Part shown: positions 49,947 to 62,011 of the stretch, piece after piece
How positions within the stretch are numbered: position 1 is the stretch's first letter
Layout: every line of letters begins with the position of its first letter
Origin: an uncultured Chloroflexia bacterium
Lineage (GTDB): Bacteria > Chloroflexota > Limnocylindria > Limnocylindrales > CSP1-4
Length of the DNA stretch: 64,000 nucleotides
Direction: 5' to 3'
Assembly (NCBI GenBank): GCA_963749705.1
Contig: CAVVNQ010000003.1
Span: 160,001-224,000, forward strand
Made by a program: the position numbers and the translations under genes
Notes under the pieces: model-generated
The model's database searches: none
What the model saw: only the letters and a program-made list of their open reading frames with translations
What the model was told of the DNA's origin: nothing

Positions 49947-52180
<2,234 letters not shown>

Positions 52181-52184
<4 letters not shown>

Positions 52185-54931
52185 CCGGACGCGGCGAACC
52201 GGCGGCACCGGCCGGCACGGGCCCCCGCAAGGTTGACCCGAGGGCCACCTATCGCATCCAGCTGACGCCGACCTTCACGTTCGACGACGCGGCCGGCGTG
52301 GCCCCGTACCTCGAGGCGCTGGGCATCAGCCACGTGTACGCCTCACCGTACCTGCGCGCGATGCCGGGCAGCCTGCACGGCTACGACGTCGTCGATCCGC
52401 GTCAGGTCAACCCCGAGCTCGGCGGGGCCGCGGGACACGCACGGTTCTGCGCGGCGCTCGGCAGCCACGGCCTGGGGCAGGTGCTCGACACGGTCCCGAA
52501 CCACATGGCGATCGGGCCCGAGAACCCGTGGTGGTGGGACGTGCTCGAGAACGGCCCTGCCAGCCGCTGGGCGATGACCTTCGACGTCGACTGGGCGCAC
52601 CCCGAGCCGCACCTGCGGGAGCGGGTGCTGCTGCCCGTGCTCGCGGATCACTACGGACGCGTGCTCGAGGCCGGCGACCTGCGCCTCGAGTGGGACGGGA
52701 CGCGGTTCACGATCCGCTACCACGATCAGCGGTTCCCGGCCGCACCCCGCAGCCTCGACGAGCTCCTCGCGCTCGCGGCCGAGCGCGCAGGCTCGGACGA
52801 GCTGGCCTTCCTCGCCGATGCGTTCGGAGCGCTGCCGCCGTCAACGGTGGTGGATCCGGCGGTGCGCGAGCGGCGGCACCGGGACAAGGAGGTCCTCGCC
52901 GCCCGTCTCGCCGCCCTTGCCGCGGCGGAGCCGCGGGTTGCCGAGGGCATCGATGCCGTGGTCGCGGCGACCAACGCGGACCTCGATGCGTTCGACCGCA
53001 TGCTCGAACGACAGAACTATCGCCTGGCCTGGTGGCGTGCCGCGCGCAGGGATCTCGGCTACCGGCGGTTCTTCGATGTCACCACGCTGGTCGGCCTGCG
53101 GATCGAGGACCCGCGCGTGTTCGCCGAGACCCACGCGCTCGTGCTGGAATGGCTGTCCGCAGGCGTCATCGACGGGCTCCGGATCGATCATCCGGACGGG
53201 CTGCTCGACCCGGAGGGCTATCTGCGACGGCTCCGCTGGGCCAGCCCGCGAGCGTGGATCGTGGTCGAGAAGATCCTGGAGCCGGGCGAGGACCTGCGCC
53301 GGAGCTGGCCGGTCGCGGGAACGAGCGGGTACGAGTTCCTGCGCCGGGTCAACCGCCTGCTCGTGGATCCGGCCGGCGAGGCGGGGCTCACGGCGCTCCA
53401 GGCGACGATCACGGGTGAGGATCGCCCGTTCGTCGACATCGCCAGGGAGGCGAAGCAGGCGGTGCTCGACGAGGTGCTGGGCTCGGAGCTGGGCCGGCTC
53501 ACCGCCCTGCTGCTGGATGTGCTGGAACGCCTCCGCCGCCATCGCGACCACACCCGCCATGACCTCCACGAGGCGCTTCGCGCGCTGCTCGTCGCCTTCC
53601 CCGTCTATCGGACCTACGTCCGGATCGACACGGCTGACGACGGCCGCCGGATCGCGAGCGTCGCGCCCGAGGACGAGGCGGTCGTCGCCGAGGCCGTCGA
53701 CGCCGCGAAGGGGCTGCGTCCCGACCTGCCCGAGGACCTGTTCGACATCCTCGGCGACCTGTTGCTGCTCCGGCGGCCCGGTGACGACATGGAGGAGGAG
53801 CTGGCGCTCCGCTTCCAGCAGCTGACGGGGCCGGTGATGGCGAAGGGGATCGAGGACACCGCCTTCTATCGCGACCTGCGCCTGGTATCGCTCAACGAGG
53901 TGGGTGGTGATCCGGGCGCATTCGGGATGACGCCGGCCGCGTTCCATGACGCCAACCTGTCCGCCCAGGAACGTTGGCCCCTCGCGATGCTCACGACGTC
54001 CACGCACGACACGAAGCGCAGCGAGGATGTTCGGGCGCGGCTGGCCGTCCTGTCCGAGCTCCCCGATGAGTGGTCGCGGATCGTCGGGACGTGGCGGCGC
54101 CTCGGCGATCCGTACCGGTCCGGGCCCGGCCCGGACGGCCACGCGGAGTACCTCATGTACCAGACCCTGGTGGGCGCCTGGCCGATCGGGATGGACCGGC
54201 TGGGCCCGTTCCTGGTCAAGGCGCTCCGCGAGGCCAAGCTGCGCACCTCGTGGACGAACGCCGATGAGGCGTACGAGGCCGCCGTGCTCGAATTCGCGGA
54301 CGGGCTCCTCGGCGACGAGTCGTTCACGGCGTCGCTCGACGCGTTCGTCCGGCAGCTGCTGCGCCCCGGCCGCATCAACGCCCTGGCCCAGCTGCTGCTC
54401 AAGCTCACCTCGCCCGGCGTGCCCGACATCTACCAGGGCGTGGAGATCTGGGACCACAGCCTCGTCGACCCCGACAATCGCCGGCCGGTGGACTTCGGCC
54501 TTCGCCGCCGGCTGCTCGCCGAGCTCACCGGGAAGCGGCCCCCGACCCCGGAGGCGCTCGCTCGCCGCCTTGACGATCCCGCCGAGCCGGGATCGCCCAA
54601 GCTCGCCGTGCTGCGCGCCGGGCTCGGGGTGCGAGCCAGGCTCCCGGCGGCGTTCGGGCCGGAGGCGACGTACGTTCCGCTTGCCGCGAGCGGGCCGGCG
54701 GCGGAGCACGTCGTGGCGTATGTGCGGACCGGAGCGGTGGCGGTCGTCGTGCCCCGGCTGACGCTGCGGCTCGGCGGCGCCTGGGCGGGAACCCGCCTCG
54801 CGCTGCCGGCGGGTCGCTGGCGCGACGAGATCACCGGCGTCGTGCATTCCGGCGGACGCACCCAGCCGCCCGTCGAGCAGCTGCTGGCGACCTTCCCGGT
54901 CGCGTTGCTCGTCCGCGAGTCCAGCGCCTGA
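52181..54931 (+). CDS. treY: Malto-oligosyltrehalose synthase
   Basis: ATYRIQL, HGYDVVD, YRRFFD, LRIDHPDGL, STHDTKRSEDVR and LVDPDNRRPVD. Confidence 0.96.
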
Positions 54932-56685
54932 TGAAGCCCCGCGTCTGGGCCCCGCGGCCGGACCGGGTGGAGCTGGTGCTGGTGCCCGCCGGTCCCCGGT
55001 CGGCCGGACCGCGCGTCGTTCATCCCATGGACCGGGACGCCTCGGGCTGGTGGTCGGCGGACCTGGAGGTGCCGCCGGGCGCGAACTACGGGTTCATGGT
55101 GGACGGCGCCGGGCCGTTTCCGGACCCTCGCTCCCCGCACCAGCCGTCCGGGGTTCACGGCCTGTCGCGAGCGGTGGACCACGGATCGTTCCAGTGGTCC
55201 GATCCCGGCTGGCAGCCCCGCCCGTGGGCGACCTCGGTTACCTACGAGCTGCACGTGGGCACGTTCACACCGGCCGGGACGTTCGACGGCGTGATCGATC
55301 GGCTCGACCATCTCGTCGACCTGGGCGTCACCCATGTCGAGCTGATGCCGGTGGTCGAGTTTCCGGGCGACCGCGGTTGGGGATACGACGGGGTGGACCT
55401 GTTCGCGCCCCACCATGCGTACGGAGGGCCGGAAGGGCTGAAGCGGCTCGTCGATGCGTGCCACGCACGCGGGCTCGCGGTGCTGATCGACGTGGTCTGG
55501 AACCACCTGGGCCCGGACGGCAACCACCTCGCCCGGTTCGGGCCGTACTTCAGCACCCGGTACGGCACGCCTTGGGGCGAGGCGGTCAACTTCGACGGTC
55601 CGGGCTCGGACGAGGTCCGGGCATTCGTGCTCGACAACGCCCGGATGTGGCTCCAGGACTACCACGCCGACGGGCTCCGGATCGACGCGGTGCACGAGAT
55701 CTTCGATCGCTCCGCCACGCACATCCTCGAGGCGGTGGCCGGATACGTCCACGAGCTCGGCGCCCGCCTCGGCCGCCCGCTGGTCGCGATCGCCGAGAGC
55801 GACCTCAACGATCCGCGGCTCGTCCGCGACGTCGAGCTCGGCGGGTACGGGCTCGACGCCCAGTGGAGCGACGACCTGCGCCACGCGATCCATGTCGCGC
55901 TGACGGGTGAGCGCGATGCCTACCACGCCCAGTACACCGGGGTGGCCGATGTGGCGGCGGCGCTCGAGCGCGTGTTCGTGTACGACGGACGGTACTCGGC
56001 CTTCCGGGGTCGGCGTCACGGGCGCCCGGTCGGCGCCCTGCCGGCGACCCGGTTCGTCGGGTTTCTCCAGAACCACGACCAGGTGGGCAACCGCGCGCTC
56101 GGCGAACGGATCTCGCACCTGGTTCCGCCGGAGGCGGCGATGGTCGGTGCCGCGCTGGTGCTGCTCGGTCCGTTCGTGCCGCTGCTGTTCGCCGGTGAGG
56201 AGTGGGCTGCGAGCTCGCCGTTCCAGTACTTCACGGATCACGACGACGCCAGCCTGGGCGCGGCCGTCCGCGAGGGGCGCCGGAACGAGTTCCCAGCGTT
56301 TGCCGGCAACCGGGCAGAGGTCCCCGATCCCCAGGCGGCGGCCACCTTCGAGCGCTCCCGGCTCGACTGGTCGGAGCGCGACGACCCGACGCACGCCTCG
56401 ATGCTGGCCTGGTACCGCACCCTGATCACGTTCCGCCGGGACCACCCGGAGCTTTGCGACGGATCACGGCCCACGGTCAGGGTCGAGCCGGCCGAGCGGT
56501 GGCTCGCCTTCGACCGTGGCGGGCTGCGCGTCGTCGCCAACCTTGGCCCGGAGCCGCGCGTCCTCGTGCTCGAGGCCGAAGCCTCCGCGACGATCGTGCT
56601 CGCATCGAGCCCCGATGTCCGCCTGGCCGGGGGTGGAATCCATCTGCCCGGTTGGGCCCTCGGCGTCGTCCGCGCCGGCGACTGA
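54931..56685 (+). CDS. treZ: Malto-oligosyltrehalose trehalohydrolase
   Basis: YELHVGTF, WGYDGV, LRIDAVH and QNHDQVGNRA. Confidence 0.96.
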   Translation: MKPRVWAPRPDRVELVLVPAGPRSAGPRVVHPMDRDASGWWSADLEVPPGANYGFMVDGAGPFPDPRSPHQPSGVHGLSRAVDHGSFQWSDPGWQPRPWATSVTYELHVGTFTPAGTFDGVIDRLDHLVDLGVTHVELMPVVEFPGDRGWGYDGVDLFAPHHAYGGPEGLKRLVDACHARGLAVLIDVVWNHLGPDGNHLARFGPYFSTRYGTPWGEAVNFDGPGSDEVRAFVLDNARMWLQDYHADGLRIDAVHEIFDRSATHILEAVAGYVHELGARLGRPLVAIAESDLNDPRLVRDVELGGYGLDAQWSDDLRHAIHVALTGERDAYHAQYTGVADVAAALERVFVYDGRYSAFRGRRHGRPVGALPATRFVGFLQNHDQVGNRALGERISHLVPPEAAMVGAALVLLGPFVPLLFAGEEWAASSPFQYFTDHDDASLGAAVREGRRNEFPAFAGNRAEVPDPQAAATFERSRLDWSERDDPTHASMLAWYRTLITFRRDHPELCDGSRPTVRVEPAERWLAFDRGGLRVVANLGPEPRVLVLEAEASATIVLASSPDVRLAGGGIHLPGWALGVVRAGD

Positions 56686-56796
56686 TCCCCGCCGGGGGTT
56701 ACCCGCCACCGGTCGAGCCGGTCGCCTGGAGAAGGTCGCACGGTGACGATCGCCTGGAGCCGGCCGCGGACCGACACGCGCCGCTACCATCGCGGG

Positions 56797-57393
56797 GTGC
56801 GCCTGATCGCCTGGGAGGAGGAACGCCTCCAGATCTTCGCGGCGGCGGAGCTCGCTCGCCGTCGCCGGACCGCGGGTCTCGCCCTCAGCCATCCCGAGGC
56901 CGTGGCGCTGATCTGTGACGCGATGCTCGAGGCCGCTCGCGCGGGTGCCTCATACGCGGACGTGGAGGCCGCCGGTCGTGCGGCCGTCGAGCCTGACGAG
57001 GTGCTCGACGGCGTCCGTGAGATCCTGGACGAGGTCCGGCTCGAGGTCCTGCTGGGCGATGGGGCTCGCGTGATCGCCCTGGCCGACCCGCTCGACCGCG
57101 GTCAGGGCCCGGATCCGCTGGGGCCCGGCGCGCTGGTGATCGGCGATGCGGCCGATGTCGAGGTCAACGCCACCCGCGATGCGATCGAGCTCCCCGTGAC
57201 CAGCCGCTCCCGACGGCGGATCCGCGTGTCGTCCCACTACCCGTTCCACCGGGTCAATCCCCGGCTGGCATTCGACCGCGACATGGCGCGAGGGTTCCGG
57301 CTCGACCTGCCCGCGGGCGGCTACGTCGGCTGGGAGCCCGGGGAGACGAAGACCGTTCGCCTGGTGCGGTACGGGGGGACCGCGGGCCGGTGA
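56797..57393 (+). CDS. ureAB: Urease gamma-beta fusion subunit (divergent)
   Basis: Gamma part LARRRR..GL.LSHPEAVALI; beta part VSSHYPF..N..L.FDR..GFRLDLPAG..EPGE. Confidence 0.85.
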   Translation: MRLIAWEEERLQIFAAAELARRRRTAGLALSHPEAVALICDAMLEAARAGASYADVEAAGRAAVEPDEVLDGVREILDEVRLEVLLGDGARVIALADPLDRGQGPDPLGPGALVIGDAADVEVNATRDAIELPVTSRSRRRIRVSSHYPFHRVNPRLAFDRDMARGFRLDLPAGGYVGWEPGETKTVRLVRYGGTAGR

Positions 57394-59108
57394 CCAGGCT
57401 CTCCGCCCGGGAGTACCGGACGCGTTACGGTGCGACGACGGGCGACCGGGTCCGCCTCGGCGACACCAACCTGTGGATCCGCGTCGAGGACGACCGGACG
57501 GCGCGGGGCGACGAGCCGGTATGGGGCTACGCCAGGAACCTCCGTTCGAGAATGGCGCAGTCCGACGCGGCCGCCGGCCCCTCGGAGCTCGACATCGTGC
57601 TCACCGGAGCGCTCGTCGTGGATCCCACGCTGGGCGTCATCAAGGCTGACATCGGGATCAAGGACGGCCGCATCGCCGGGATCGGCCGATCCGGCAGCCC
57701 GGAGATCAGCGACGGCATCGACCTGCTGATCGGGCCGCACACGAAGTCGTACATGGCGTATGGCCTGATCGCGACGCCCGGGGCGGTCGACACGCACGTC
57801 CACACCATCGGGCCGGAGCTGCTTCCGCCTGCGCTGTCGGCCGGGGTCACCACCCTCATCACCGCCGGCTTCGAGGAGCCGCCGTGGGCGATGGAGCGCA
57901 CATTGGCCGCGCTCGAGGGCTGGCCGGTCAACATCGGGCTCCAGGCCGGCGCCCGCGCCGCGGAGGACAGCCATCTCGATGCGCTCGTGGCGGCCGGTGC
58001 GCTGGGCTTCAAGATCCACGAGGACAATGGCGCCTATCCGGAGTTGATCGACCACGTGCTCCGGTACGCGGACGCCAGGGACCTCACCGTCAGCCTCCAC
58101 ACGGACGGCCTGCACGAGTCGGCGGAGCTCGAGGACACGGTTGCGGCGATCGCGGGTCGCACGGTCCACGCGTACCACGTGGAAGGCTCCGGCGGCGGTC
58201 ACGTCCCGGACCTGCTGGGCCTGGTGCGGGAGCCGTCGATCATCTGCTCATCGACCACGCCCACCCTTCCCTTCGGCGCGCACACGGCGGTCGAGCACGT
58301 TCCGATGACGATGCTCAACCACGGCCTCTCGTGGGGCATCCCCGGCGACCTCGAGCTGGTCCTCGAGCGTGTGATCGAGGCGCGCACCGCCGCCGAGGGG
58401 CCGCTCCACGAGCTGGGTGCGATCTCGATCATCAACTCCGACTCGCAGGGGATGGGCCGGATCGGCGAGACGGTCCGGCGAACGTTCCAGCTCGCGCACG
58501 TGATGAAGGCGTGGCGGCGGTCACCGGCCGCGGACGGCGTACCCGGCCTGCCCGCCGATCCGGGGCTCACCGATCCCGATGACCGCGACGACACGGCACG
58601 CGTCCTGCGCTACCTGGCCAAGGTGACGATCGACCCGTCGATCACCCACGGCGTCGCCGATCACGTCGGGTCGCTGCGGCCGGGACGCATGGCGGACATC
58701 GTGCTGTGGAAGCCCGCGTTCTTCGGCGTCAAGCCGGAGTGGGTGTTCAAGGGCGGGTTTCCCGCGTGGGGGCCGCTGGGCGATGGAAACGCGTCGCTCG
58801 AGCGCGCCGAGCCGACACGTTACCGACCCGACTGGGGCGGGACATCGGGCGCCGCACCGCTGCTTGCGGCGACGTTCGTGGCCCACGATATGGACCAAGG
58901 TCCGCTTCGGAGGCGTCTGGCGACCCGTCGCGCGCTGATTCCCGCCCGTGGCGTGCGGAACCTGACGCGTGACGACCTCTGGGCGAACCGCGCTGCTGCT
59001 CCGGTGGACATCGACGTCCGCACCGGCGAGGTCTCGCTGGCCGGACGCCGGCTCGCGGTCGATCCGGTGGCCGAGGTTCCGCTCAGCCGCCGCTACCTGT
59101 TGCGCTGA
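57390..59108 (+). CDS. ureC: Urease alpha-like amidohydrolase (divergent)
   Basis: DTHVH, FKIHED, HTD, YHVEGSGGGH and SDSQGMGRIGE. Confidence 0.85.
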   Translation: MTRLSAREYRTRYGATTGDRVRLGDTNLWIRVEDDRTARGDEPVWGYARNLRSRMAQSDAAAGPSELDIVLTGALVVDPTLGVIKADIGIKDGRIAGIGRSGSPEISDGIDLLIGPHTKSYMAYGLIATPGAVDTHVHTIGPELLPPALSAGVTTLITAGFEEPPWAMERTLAALEGWPVNIGLQAGARAAEDSHLDALVAAGALGFKIHEDNGAYPELIDHVLRYADARDLTVSLHTDGLHESAELEDTVAAIAGRTVHAYHVEGSGGGHVPDLLGLVREPSIICSSTTPTLPFGAHTAVEHVPMTMLNHGLSWGIPGDLELVLERVIEARTAAEGPLHELGAISIINSDSQGMGRIGETVRRTFQLAHVMKAWRRSPAADGVPGLPADPGLTDPDDRDDTARVLRYLAKVTIDPSITHGVADHVGSLRPGRMADIVLWKPAFFGVKPEWVFKGGFPAWGPLGDGNASLERAEPTRYRPDWGGTSGAAPLLAATFVAHDMDQGPLRRRLATRRALIPARGVRNLTRDDLWANRAAAPVDIDVRTGEVSLAGRRLAVDPVAEVPLSRRYLLR

Positions 59109-59109
59109 G

Positions 59110-60162
59110 CTACCACAGGTCGCCGACCGTGAACCCGTCGGGGAACGGGTCGGACGGGTCCACGACGTAGCTCGCAAACCCGGTGATCCACGCGGTGCCC
59201 GTGATGGACGGCACGACCGCCGCTCGGCCGCCGACCTGCGTCTCCTCCACGAGGCGACCGGTGAACACCGTGTCCAGGATCCCCTCGTGCCGGAAGTCCT
59301 CGCCGATCGCGAGGCGGCCCTTCGCGTGGAGCACGGCCATCTTTGCGCAGGTTCCCGTTCCGCACGGGGACCGGTCGATGACGCCGGTCCAGGTCGACGG
59401 CCTCGACCAGTCGACCACGCCCGTGGATACCGTGGTCACGTTGCGCCACGAGTTCCGCGCGTCATGCGGCGGACCCGAGAGCTGACCGATGGTGATCCCG
59501 GCAAACCCGGGCTGATCCGGATGGACCACGGGCAGCTGCTCGGCCGCCGCCGCCTTGATCATCTCGGTGACCCGGGTGATGTCCCGTCCCTCATCGGGCA
59601 CCAGCCGGAACCCCAGCGCCTCGGCATCGGCGATCACGTAGAACATGCCGCCGTACGCGACGTCCACGGTGACGGTGCCCAGCTGGGGGACCTCGACCGG
59701 CGTGTCGAGGTGGGTGGCGAACGCCGGGACGTTGCGGAAGGTGACCCCCGTCACCTTGCCGTTGGCGCACGTCGCCCGGATGCGGATCAGCCCCGCCGGT
59801 GCCTCCAGCGTGACCTCGGTGAGCGGTTCGTGCATCTGCAGCATCCCGGTCTCGAGCAGGACCGTGGCCACGCAGATCGTGTTGGTGCCGGACATCCCCG
59901 GGTACTCGACCTGCTCCATGATCACGTACCCGGCGTCCGCCTCGGGATGGGTGGCCGGCAGGATCACGTTCGCGCACAGCGCTGGGTAGCCGCGCGGCTC
60001 GCGCAACATCAGCCGGCGCAGCTCGTCGCCGTGCTCGGCCAGGTGGCGCATCTTCTCGAACATGGTGGCACCGGGGACATCCAGCACGCCGCCCACGACA
60101 ACGCGGCCCGGCTCACCTGCTGCGTGGGCGTCGACCGCCTGGATCATCCGCGCGAGCCGCAT
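59110..60162 (-). CDS. Proline racemase family protein (Ser/Cys catalytic pair)
   Basis: HAAGEP, EPRG, MSGTN, DVAYGG and DRSPCGTGT. Confidence 0.9.
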   Translation of the reverse strand: MRLARMIQAVDAHAAGEPGRVVVGGVLDVPGATMFEKMRHLAEHGDELRRLMLREPRGYPALCANVILPATHPEADAGYVIMEQVEYPGMSGTNTICVATVLLETGMLQMHEPLTEVTLEAPAGLIRIRATCANGKVTGVTFRNVPAFATHLDTPVEVPQLGTVTVDVAYGGMFYVIADAEALGFRLVPDEGRDITRVTEMIKAAAAEQLPVVHPDQPGFAGITIGQLSGPPHDARNSWRNVTTVSTGVVDWSRPSTWTGVIDRSPCGTGTCAKMAVLHAKGRLAIGEDFRHEGILDTVFTGRLVEETQVGGRAAVVPSITGTAWITGFASYVVDPSDPFPDGFTVGDLW

Positions 60163-60290: not shown

Positions 60291-61403
60291 ATGTTCGAGG
60301 AAGCCGTCGCGGCGCGCTTTCCGGCGCTTGCCGGCACGATCTACATGAACACCGCGACCGTCGGAGTGGGGCCGGCCGCGGCCGGCACCGCCCTTCGCGA
60401 TGCCGCAGATGCCTGGACTCGCGGCAGGTTCGACTGGCAGGAGGCGGAACGGGCAGGCGAGGACGTACGCACCCTGTTCGGGCGGCTTGTCGGGTCCAAT
60501 TCCGACTGCGTGACGCTGGTACCCGCCGCGGGCGCGGTCGCGGGCCTGGTTGCCATGCACCTGGTCCGGCGGTTCGCCCGCGGGGGCAACGTCGTGGTCG
60601 GTGCCGAGGAGTTCACCTCCAACCTGTACCCATGGCGAGCCCTCGAGGGGCGTGGGTTCGACGTGCGGATGGTGCCGTTCCGCGATGGCGCTCCCCCCGA
60701 GGCTGAGATCGCCGCTGCCGTGGACCGGGACACACGTCTGGTGGCGGCCAGCGCGGTGCAGTCGGCGACAGGGATCCGGGCAGACCTCGCCCGGCTTCGC
60801 GACGCTGCGGGCGACGCACTCCTGTTCGTCGATGCGGCGCAGGCGGCCGGATCCGTGCCGATCGACGTCGAGGCGCTGCGGATCGACGCGCTGGCGGCCC
60901 CCAGCCACAAGTTCCTGGTCGGGACACGCGGCATGGGGTACGGCGTCTTCTCGCCGGCACTCCGCGACGCGCTCCAACCGGTCTGGCCGGGCTGGAAGGC
61001 CGCGGAATCGCCGATGACAAGCTTCTACGGCCCGGACATGACGCTCTCGACCACGGCCTCTCGCCTGGACATGTCGCTCGCCTGGTTCAACGCCCTGGCG
61101 GAGCGCGAGTCGATGGGTGTCCTGCACGAGCTCGGGCCGGATCGCATTCACGCCCACGACGCCATGCTCGCCGATCGCATGCGGGAGGCCCTGCGTGGAG
61201 CGGGCGTCCCGTTCCTCGATCATGGACCCGCTCGCCGTTCCCCCATCGTGTCCTGCACGCCGGCCGCGCCCGACGCCGGCGAGCGGCTCAAGGAGGCCGG
61301 CGTGATCGCGGGCGTCAGGGCTGGCCGCGTCCGCCTTGCCCTCCACCTCTACAACACGGCGGCGCAGGTCGACCGGGTTGCGGAGCTGCTCGGTCGCCGC
61401 TAG
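60291..61403 (+). CDS. PLP-dependent class V aminotransferase / cysteine desulfurase-like enzyme
   Basis: YMNTATVG, VDAAQAAG, SHKFL and RLALHLYNT. Confidence 0.88.
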   Translation: MFEEAVAARFPALAGTIYMNTATVGVGPAAAGTALRDAADAWTRGRFDWQEAERAGEDVRTLFGRLVGSNSDCVTLVPAAGAVAGLVAMHLVRRFARGGNVVVGAEEFTSNLYPWRALEGRGFDVRMVPFRDGAPPEAEIAAAVDRDTRLVAASAVQSATGIRADLARLRDAAGDALLFVDAAQAAGSVPIDVEALRIDALAAPSHKFLVGTRGMGYGVFSPALRDALQPVWPGWKAAESPMTSFYGPDMTLSTTASRLDMSLAWFNALAERESMGVLHELGPDRIHAHDAMLADRMREALRGAGVPFLDHGPARRSPIVSCTPAAPDAGERLKEAGVIAGVRAGRVRLALHLYNTAAQVDRVAELLGRR

Positions 61404-61861
61404 CGTCGGCGGGCGTCGGCCAACTGGCGCTCCGTGTCGCGCTTCGCATCCCGTTCCTGGATCTCGCGCCTCCGATCCCAGGTCTGTTTGCCGCGGGCAA
61501 GACCGAGCTGCAGCTTCGCCTTGCCCGCATCGTTGATGTAGATCACGAGCGGGACGAGCGTCAGGCCCTTGGCCTTGGTCTTGCCCAGCAGCTCGTCGAT
61601 CTCCGAGCGATGGAGGAGCAGCTTCCGGGCGCGCTTGGGCTCGTGGTTGAAGCGCACGTCGGCGCTCTCCCACGGGGCGATGTGAAGGCCGATGATCCAC
61701 GCCTCGTCCTTCTCGATCCGCGCATACGCGTCCGCGAGGCTCACCTTGTGAGCCCTCACGCTCTTGATCTCGGTTCCCCGCAGCACGATGCCAGCCTCGA
61801 AGGTGTCCTCGATGCTGTACTCGTGGTGCGCCCTGCGGTTGCGGGCGATGGTGTCGCCCAT
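61400..61861 (-). CDS. smpB: SsrA-binding protein SmpB
   Basis: NRRAHHEY..FEAGIVL.GTEIKS, RKLLLH and GLARGK..DRR. Confidence 0.97.
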   Translation of the reverse strand: MGDTIARNRRAHHEYSIEDTFEAGIVLRGTEIKSVRAHKVSLADAYARIEKDEAWIIGLHIAPWESADVRFNHEPKRARKLLLHRSEIDELLGKTKAKGLTLVPLVIYINDAGKAKLQLGLARGKQTWDRRREIQERDAKRDTERQLADARRR

Positions 61862-61948
61862 GGATCGGCTCCTCTCGTACCCTGCCGGCGCGCGATGAGG
61901 CGCGGGGCCGAAGTGTGCCACGGGCCCGGTTCGCCGGCGGCGGACGCA

Positions 61949-61980
61949 CGAACGCCGGCCCGCACGCGGACCGGCGTTCG
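61949..61980 (-). terminator. GC-rich hairpin (terminator or attenuator) between the small ORF and smpB
   Basis: CGAACGCCGG...CCGGCGTTCG 10-bp stem, extended by a U-G pair on the minus strand. The U tail is weak. Confidence 0.55.
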
Positions 61981-62011
61981 AATTGCTACCGACCACCCGT
62001 CGGGATCGACT

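Follow-up and report, generated by a model that had tools for sequence, protein, structure and literature searches.

The urease-like gene pair

We analyzed a stretch of 64,000 nucleotides from an uncultured Chloroflexia bacterium (positions 160,001 to 224,000 of contig CAVVNQ010000003.1, assembly GCA_963749705.1; hereafter, the window), which carries two adjoining urease-like genes, ure(AB) and ureC. The genes are co-directional, the stop of ure(AB) overlaps the start of the alpha-subunit gene (GTGA), and together they encode a complete, intact urease-family enzyme that consists of a fused gamma-beta subunit and an alpha subunit:

56797..57393, + strand: ure(AB), fused urease gamma-beta subunit, 198 amino acids from the GTG at 56797
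57390..59108, + strand: ureC-like alpha subunit, 572 amino acids, Pfam Urease_alpha and Amidohydro_1

The longest open reading frame (ORF) of ure(AB) in the ORF list spans 56743..57393 (+ strand); with 56797 as the start, the alignment to the NCBIfam gamma models begins at residue 1, and 56797, the position given in an initial annotation made from the letters of the window, is therefore the likelier start. The longest ORF contains both Urease_gamma (residues 20-116) and Urease_beta (residues 128-213) in one chain, so that the fusion of the two subunits, also noted in the initial annotation, is evident from the Pfam domains. Against the NCBIfam model NF009671 ('bifunctional urease subunit gamma/beta'), ure(AB) scores 199 bits (cut-off 243). 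The alpha subunit passes only the subfamily model NF009686 (619 bits, cut-off 354) and remains below all NCBIfam UreC equivalog cut-offs (533 vs. 680 bits for TIGR01792 and 545 vs. 907 bits for NF009685). The domain set of the urease family is complete, with PF00449 and PF01979 in the alpha subunit and PF00547 and PF00699 for gamma and beta. The AlphaFold2 model of the alpha subunit (predicted local distance difference test, 89; predicted template modeling score, 0.93) matches solved ureases with template modeling (TM) scores of 0.92-0.93 at about 40% identity, all solved relatives being canonical ureases; the next-best folds (hydantoinase and others) score below 0.5.

Retained catalytic residues and a clade-wide loop deletion

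Residue equivalences were derived from the alignment of the window alpha subunit to UreC of Klebsiella aerogenes (E = 3e-135). The six metal ligands are all present, as are the catalytic His, Asp and Arg; this agrees with the initial annotation, which had stated that all metal ligands are retained. The carbonyl-polarizing His (equivalent to K. aerogenes His219), the flap His and the Asp/Arg lock are retained as well. Thus, the window protein shares with the canonical nickel urease UreABC (K. aerogenes, PDB 2kau and 1fwj; Sporosarcina pasteurii; Helicobacter pylori) the three domains, the fold, the six ligands, and the equivalents of His219, Asp221, His320, Arg336, Gly277 and Met364.

Several segments that the initial annotation had singled out as remodeled differ from canonical urease, and each of these was recovered in the K. 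aerogenes alignment. In place of GGGTGPAAGTHATTCTPG of K. aerogenes UreC, the window protein has TAGFEEPP, a loop shorter by 11 residues, whereby the Ala167/Ala170 loop is lost. In the mobile flap, MVCHHL is replaced by MLNHGL, that is, Cys-His-His by Asn-His-Gly, so that the flap Cys has become Asn, the next-but-one His has become Gly, and the former Cys-His pair is now Asn310-His311. SQAM reads SQGM, with Gly354 in the position of the canonical Ala (Ala363 in K. aerogenes, Ala366 in S. pasteurii), and the N-terminal FGGGKVIRDG segment, which includes the canonical GGGK, reads WGYARNLRSR. In addition, there is a 14-residue insertion after MKAWRR, the length of which varies within the clade described below.

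The position of the deletion can be related to the urease mechanism. Counted along the chain from His134/His136, Ala167 of K. aerogenes falls within the deleted stretch. In a review of the urease mechanism (PMC7433671), His320 of K. aerogenes corresponds to His323 of S. pasteurii, an offset of three, so that Ala167 is equivalent to S. pasteurii Ala170. According to this review, the urea nitrogen on Ni(2) donates hydrogen bonds to the carbonyl groups of Ala170 and Ala366, and the distal nitrogen departs as ammonia. The deletion of the Ala167/Ala170 loop would thus remove one wall of the pocket beside the non-leaving nitrogen.

A word-indexed protein search yielded 7944 homologues at E ≤ 1e-10, the best 120 of which are 79-98% identical to the window alpha subunit; many of these 120 are labeled 'urease subunit alpha' and come from Chloroflexota or Candidatus Limnocylindrales, and hundreds of near relatives carry the same source name. 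The aligned cluster representatives form a graded series, from the canonical loop through 4- and 10-residue deletions to the 11-residue deletion. In a scan of species-representative genomes, we identified at least 80 related loci (from 600 matching stretches; all locus counts given here refer to the matches listed), namely, 62 with the 11-residue deletion, 2 with the 10-residue deletion, 15 with the 4-residue deletion and one with the canonical loop. The 62 loci that share the deletion with the window come from Limnocylindria and from metagenome-assembled genomes (MAGs) of Actinomycetota. Loop length is identical in 63 of the 63 sequences (window included), and Phe161, Glu163 and Pro164 of the shortened loop (F-x-E-P) are invariant in all of them. 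Thus, the loop deletion is a family trait rather than a chance feature. The ratio of nonsynonymous to synonymous substitution rates (dN/dS) between the alpha gene and six relatives is 0.14-0.30; the gene is under purifying selection. The retained and altered positions, with their conservation among the clade members that could be aligned, are the following:

57795..57803, + strand: HxH metal ligands H136 and H138, equivalent to K. aerogenes H134/H136; kept in 62/62 alignable members
57861..57884, + strand: shortened loop T158-A-G-F-E-E-P-P165, replacing the canonical 19-residue G-G-G-T-G-P...T-P-G-P loop
58011..58025, + strand: K208 (the Lys that is carbamylated in ureases), H210 and D212, equivalent to K. 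aerogenes K217/H219/D221; kept in 63/63
58098..58100, + strand: metal ligand H237, equivalent to K. aerogenes H246; kept in 63/63
58176..58178, + strand: metal ligand H263, equivalent to K. aerogenes H272; kept in 63/63
58305..58370, + strand: mobile-flap region M306-T-M-L-N-H-G-L-S ... R327, with the flap Cys replaced by Asn310 and the catalytic His311 and Arg327 kept
58440..58454, + strand: metal ligand D351 in N-S-D-S-Q-G-M, equivalent to K. aerogenes D360; kept in 61/62

Within the flap, His311 (K. aerogenes H320) is conserved in 63/63 sequences and Arg327 (K. aerogenes R336) in 61/62, with a single Arg-to-Leu replacement; position 310 is Asn in 43 sequences, Val in 15 and another residue in 5 (n = 63). 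Gly354 is present in 62/62 sequences. In one locus, L058, the metal-binding Asp is replaced by Asn (NSNSQGMGR), the sole ligand change among the 63 sequences.

In a quick maximum likelihood tree (IQ-TREE, 52 sequences, rooted on four canonical ureases), built under a simple model with the loop columns included and with three long rows flagged as unsure, all deletion-bearing sequences group apart from the canonical ureases (support 99). The 4-residue sequences, among them the ure(AB)C type of Streptomyces, form a paraphyletic grade. The 10- and 11-residue types group together (support 95), and the 11-residue type is a single clade (support 100, branch length 0.33), in which Limnocylindria form one group (support 100) and the Actinomycetota MAGs form several. 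The window protein accordingly sits outside the canonical ureases and is not nested among them.

Several observations concern the wider family and the fate of individual copies. Eight full-length UreC homologues (P0143, P0178, P0184, P0191, P0192, P0193, P0206 and P0269), 31-40% identical, have lost several or all of the ligands (HxH, Lys, Asp) and look like a separate 'pseudo-urease' group. The alpha gene was detected in 19 of the 24 sampled genomes of the genus, with no match in the other five. In one genome, it consists of two adjoining pieces (G001:C2:148738-150454), in another (G017), it is split over two contigs, and in a third, there is only an 87-residue C-terminal remnant (G003:C19:59944-60204); some members of the genus thus seem to be losing the gene or to have lost it. 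One Limnocylindria MAG carries two copies of the 11-residue-deletion type on different contigs (L034 and L053). The surroundings of the L053 copy differ: an Amidohydro_3 gene immediately precedes it, and an NCS1-type permease is encoded close by.

Host genomes and gene neighborhoods

Urease is the textbook example of an enzyme that needs dedicated chaperones for nickel delivery. The accessory genes were examined at the levels of the locus, the genome and the clade. The initial annotation had noted that no ureD/E/F/G is adjacent to the pair, and this holds genome-wide: in the window's genome (3.6 Mb in 22 contigs, 88% complete), UreD, UreF, UreG and UreE were found neither next to the pair nor anywhere else, only one UreC homologue was identified and, hence, no second, canonical urease; NicO nickel permease was not found and HypB gave no match above cut-off in the same assembly. 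Across the genus, UreD was found in 0/61 genomes and UreG above cut-off in 0/61, including 22 genomes of high quality as well as genomes in a single contig; one single-contig genome (G006) carries the alpha gene, and neither UreD nor above-cut-off UreG was found in it. Among 40 further genomes reached via related loci, 31 carry the 11-residue type and 9 are comparison genomes with other types. Neither UreD (0/31) nor UreG above cut-off (0/31) was found in the former, whereas the same searches identified both UreD and UreG in 7 of the 9 comparison genomes (five Streptomyces or Nonomuraea, one host of the 10-residue type and an archaeon with a canonical urease). Because UreD and above-cut-off UreG are missing across the genus and the other genomes that carry the clade but are found in comparison genomes, the lack of chaperones characterizes the clade as a whole and does not stem from incomplete assembly.

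There are precedents for maturation without chaperones. Helicobacter mustelae UreA2B2 (PDB 3qga), from a gastric pathogen in which it exists beside a standard nickel urease, is an iron urease whose maturation does not require the usual accessory proteins, and the urease of Bacillus subtilis is another accessory-free case. In sequence and fold matches, UreA2B2 ranks with the canonical ureases (E = 9e-131, TM 0.90).

Neighboring genes were called by third-position GC content, clustered and cross-checked by tblastn. In most related loci, the gene immediately preceding the alpha gene is a homologue of ure(AB); in one locus (L065:5976-11611), some 3.5 kb separate ure(AB) from ureC downstream, and this interval holds two ORFs that are related to each other and lie on opposite strands, which may be an insertion that split the operon. 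No neighbor is conserved across the whole clade in the loci listed, and no urea transporter is among the conserved neighbors of the 80 listed loci. In Limnocylindria, the pair is located beside smpB-ctpA-ftsX, and 16 loci have a gene for a major facilitator superfamily (MFS) transporter no more than 3 kb upstream; it shares the strand of the pair in 15 of them and directly adjoins ure(AB) in 10. Ten loci have Amidohydro_3 hydrolases next to the ure genes. By tblastn, 4 Streptomyces loci have an NCS1 (cytosine/purine/allantoin-type) permease adjoining the ure genes, and the permease near the L053 copy belongs to the same NCS1 cluster.

A further neighbor in relatives is a homologue of agmatine deiminase. 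In 12/12 Streptomyces loci of the SCO5526 type, its gene starts 14-111 bases after ureC and has the same orientation. It also abuts the ure genes, again on the same strand, in five Actinomycetota loci of the 11-residue clade, in three gene orders: the deiminase gene precedes ure(AB) in L060, L062 and L066, comes after ureC in L059, and separates the two ure genes in L061. This protein belongs to the PAD_porph family (E = 5e-112) and scores 303-326 bits against the agmatine deiminase equivalog TIGR03380 (cut-off 382); among solved structures, agmatine deiminases match it best (E = 3e-69). A PotD-like binding protein and two permeases are encoded beside the ure genes in L064, with homologous clusters in L069 and L079, and in L069 an ATP-binding cassette (ABC) ATPase is directly downstream of ureC.

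The Streptomyces coelicolor SCO5525-SCO5526 type (loci L085 and L090-L101) shares with the window pair the gamma-beta fusion, the lack of adjacent accessory genes, the Gly of SQGM and membership in the deletion-bearing group, but it is 44-46% identical, has a 4-residue loop deletion and the flap VHDLK, and is followed by the deiminase homologue as described above; furthermore, its host also has a canonical urease, with UreD and UreG, elsewhere in the genome. Clusters of 'only ure(AB)C genes', with the gamma-beta fusion and no accessory genes, were noted for Streptomyces in 2008 in PMC2492869, which also mentions ureEF(AB)CGD clusters of Bradyrhizobium and Pseudomonas syringae. PMC3293853, a study of arginine regulation in S. 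coelicolor, counts SCO5527 as a homologue belonging to the arginine decarboxylase pathway and, without data, refers to SCO5525-5526 as 'urea-utilizing genes'. We found no report on the function of the Streptomyces ure(AB)C type in the literature searched, nor, in that literature, a paper that characterizes the 11-residue clade or ties a urease homologue to N-carbamoylputrescine. Thus, both the urease family and the occurrence of ure(AB)C without accessory genes have been published; the 11-residue clade, its clade-wide lack of chaperones and the linkage to the deiminase were not found in the literature searched.

Downstream of the pair in the window lies a convergent gene:

59110..60162, - strand: protein of the proline racemase / hydroxyproline dehydratase family, Pfam Pro_racemase, E = 6e-120

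This protein scores under every NCBIfam equivalog cut-off, the best match being the trans-3-hydroxy-L-proline dehydratase model (373 bits, cut-off 550). The gene is present in 8/8 loci of the genus and, beyond it, in only 18 related loci plus the window, always convergent and on the opposite strand, and it is absent from the rest of the clade. We considered it as a functional partner of the urease-like enzyme and rejected it, given this restricted distribution, the invariably convergent orientation and the location beside the housekeeping genes smpB-ctpA-ftsX; probably, it is inherited synteny without a functional link.

Other features of the surroundings are recorded here for completeness. 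Directly upstream of the pair is a trehalose block (49947-56685), which we take from the translations to be glgX, treY and treZ of the maltooligosyl-trehalose pathway, and which is retained only in the closest relative examined (L021). Further downstream, a class-V aminotransferase gene (60291-61403, + strand) and smpB (61400-61996, - strand) overlap by 4 bases at their 3' ends (61400-61403). A 267-base contig from a sediment metatranscriptome (run X6) covers 56654-56920, that is, the start of ure(AB) and the upstream spacer, with 2 differences, whereas other RNA pieces are short and dissimilar; as a sign of expression, this contig is at most a hint, since such libraries can carry DNA. The DNA runs X1-X5 are labeled soil metagenomes; of these, X1 and X5 cover parts of the stretch, X1 with near-identical pieces and X5 with more divergent ones.

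Proposed activity and its alternatives

We propose that the window enzyme is a hydrolase of substituted ureas with a self-assembling metal center, possibly still turning over urea (with a probability of roughly 0.45). We regard it as a working, chaperone-independent ureidohydrolase; its action on substituted ureas is suggested by the alignment, the urease mechanism and the gene context of the relatives. In the proposed mechanism, a ureido group (H2N-CO-NH-R) would be hydrolyzed by attack of the metal-bridging hydroxide at a binuclear center that would assemble unaided, without UreD/E/F/G, and in which the metal need not be nickel. The 11-residue deletion would remove the loop whose carbonyl clamps the metal-bound, non-leaving urea nitrogen, with the invariant Phe-x-Glu-Pro put in its place and the flap Cys lost too, so that the pocket appears remodeled exactly where a substituent on the non-leaving nitrogen would sit. 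Such a substituent would need room at the place where the Ala170 loop is cut, which is why N-monosubstituted ureas would be accepted. The predicted products are ammonia and an N-alkylcarbamate, which would decay to the amine and CO2.

Agmatine deiminase produces N-carbamoylputrescine, which is an N-monosubstituted urea, whereas agmatinase releases urea. Because relatives of the window pair share operons with homologues of agmatine deiminase and with importers of the polyamine type, N-carbamoylputrescine, which would be converted to putrescine, CO2 and ammonia, is the best candidate substrate. Streptomyces hosts already possess a canonical, accessory-equipped urease, so that the second copy plausibly has another job. 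The reaction proposed for the deiminase-linked members, from ureido compound to amine, CO2 and NH3, is the one that AguB (nitrilase superfamily, TIGR03381) would perform with an unrelated fold and mechanism, namely, a Cys-Glu-Lys triad and no metal. We also tried a complementarity argument, whereby the urease-like enzyme would replace a missing AguB, and dropped it: although 0/40 genomes score above the TIGR03381 cut-off, sub-cut-off matches of the nitrilase family are present in 39/40. Strong sub-cut-off AguB-like matches are absent from three MAGs with operonic AguA-ure genes (G103-G105) and present in Streptomyces.

Several observations weigh against this proposal, and some of them speak for a genuine urease (EC 3.5.1.5), matured without accessory proteins, that recycles agmatinase-derived urea or uses environmental urea, the loop deletion and the flap changes tuning the kinetics or the choice of metal rather than the substrate. 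We regard this alternative as a serious possibility. The window's genome encodes an agmatinase (TIGR01230, 194 bits vs. the cut-off of 174), that is, a urea producer, but no PAD_porph gene, so that the linkage to agmatine deiminase does not extend to the window; PAD_porph is present in only 10/61 genomes of the genus, on contigs other than those of the urease-like genes where both are known, and in only 6/31 of the other genomes that carry the clade, most of which thus lack the deiminase. No other urease and no urea carboxylase above cut-off were found in the window's genome, which leaves the pair as the only candidate urea-degrading enzyme found there, and, given the agmatinase, a plain urea-recycling role is therefore favored in this organism; the assembly, it should be noted, is only 88% complete. 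All catalytic side chains and all side chains known to contact urea are kept, and Ala366 makes its contact through the backbone, so that urea could still bind; the pocket shape itself is deduced solely from the alignment and the literature. AguB-like genes of the nitrilase family (sub-cut-off, 240-318 bits) occur in most genomes, including Streptomyces, and the missing-step argument for N-carbamoylputrescine therefore holds only for the three small MAGs. The accessory-free H. mustelae UreA2B2, which is among the structural matches, provides a precedent for such a urease. However, this interpretation has to accommodate the clade-wide deletion of the loop that contributes one of two carbonyls accepting hydrogen bonds from the urea nitrogen on Ni(2), the failure to find the urea ABC transporter UrtA in the window's genome or any urea transporter around the related loci, operon partners in the relatives (the deiminase homologue and polyamine-type importers) that neither make nor carry urea, and the retention of this type in Streptomyces alongside a canonical urease. 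Under the substituted-urea reading, too, the enzyme may still act on urea, which could even be its main substrate in the window's organism, where agmatinase is present and the deiminase is absent.

The remaining explanations are less probable. An amidohydrolase with the urease fold might act on another class of substrates, such as guanidino compounds, cyclic amides or hydantoins, or carbamate esters, supplied via the MFS or NCS1 permeases. The Amidohydro_3 and NCS1 neighbors, the upstream MFS genes in Limnocylindria and the scores under all UreC equivalog cut-offs are compatible with this possibility, but the full urease-specific set of the flap His, the Asp-His-Arg lock and the carbonyl-polarizing His points to ureido-type chemistry, and none of these neighbors is conserved clade-wide, so we consider it improbable. 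That the pair encodes an ordinary nickel urease with UreDEFG in unassembled parts of the genome would be conceivable from an incomplete assembly in 22 contigs; with UreD and above-cut-off UreG missing from 61/61 genus genomes, including the single-contig one that has the alpha gene, and from 31/31 others, while controls and Streptomyces gave matches in the same searches, this is hardly credible. The same can be said of a catalytically dead relic or a non-enzymatic protein: ligand-less homologues do exist among the distant representatives, and split or remnant copies in some members of the genus, yet in the clade the ligands are kept in 61-63 of 63 sequences, the dN/dS values are low, and the structure model is confident.

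Thus, the interpretation offered in the initial annotation stands in part. A distinct urease-like enzyme is supported by the position outside the canonical clade, the scores below the UreC equivalog cut-offs and the genome- and clade-wide lack of accessory genes. For the suggested substrate, a substituted urea or carbamoyl compound, the deletion of the loop by the Ni(2)-bound nitrogen and the operonic deiminase homologue of the relatives are favorable, whereas the window's genome, with agmatinase and no deiminase, makes plain urea a serious candidate.

A clade with an intact metal site in chaperone-free hosts, common in soil Chloroflexota, is natural material for the questions of how such a site assembles unaided and around which metal. 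A broader generalization, to which we assign a rather low likelihood, is that the 11-residue clade represents a new, self-assembling and chaperone-independent metallo-ureidohydrolase activity on the urease scaffold, directed at N-monosubstituted ureas, and that the same probably applies to the larger ure(AB)C clade with the second 'urease' of Streptomyces. Where an agmatine deiminase gene shares the operon, N-carbamoylputrescine would then be the physiological substrate. For the second Streptomyces 'urease', the operon link to the agmatine deiminase homologue offers a testable function. If N-substituted ureas are indeed the substrates, these enzymes would provide an alternative last step of the agmatine deiminase route and a candidate catalyst for substituted-urea compounds. 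If the substrate is not urea, ureC-based surveys and genome-based claims of ureolysis for these lineages would be overstated, and, with a new ureidohydrolase, many 'ureC' annotations in soil Limnocylindria and Actinomycetota would not report ureolysis.

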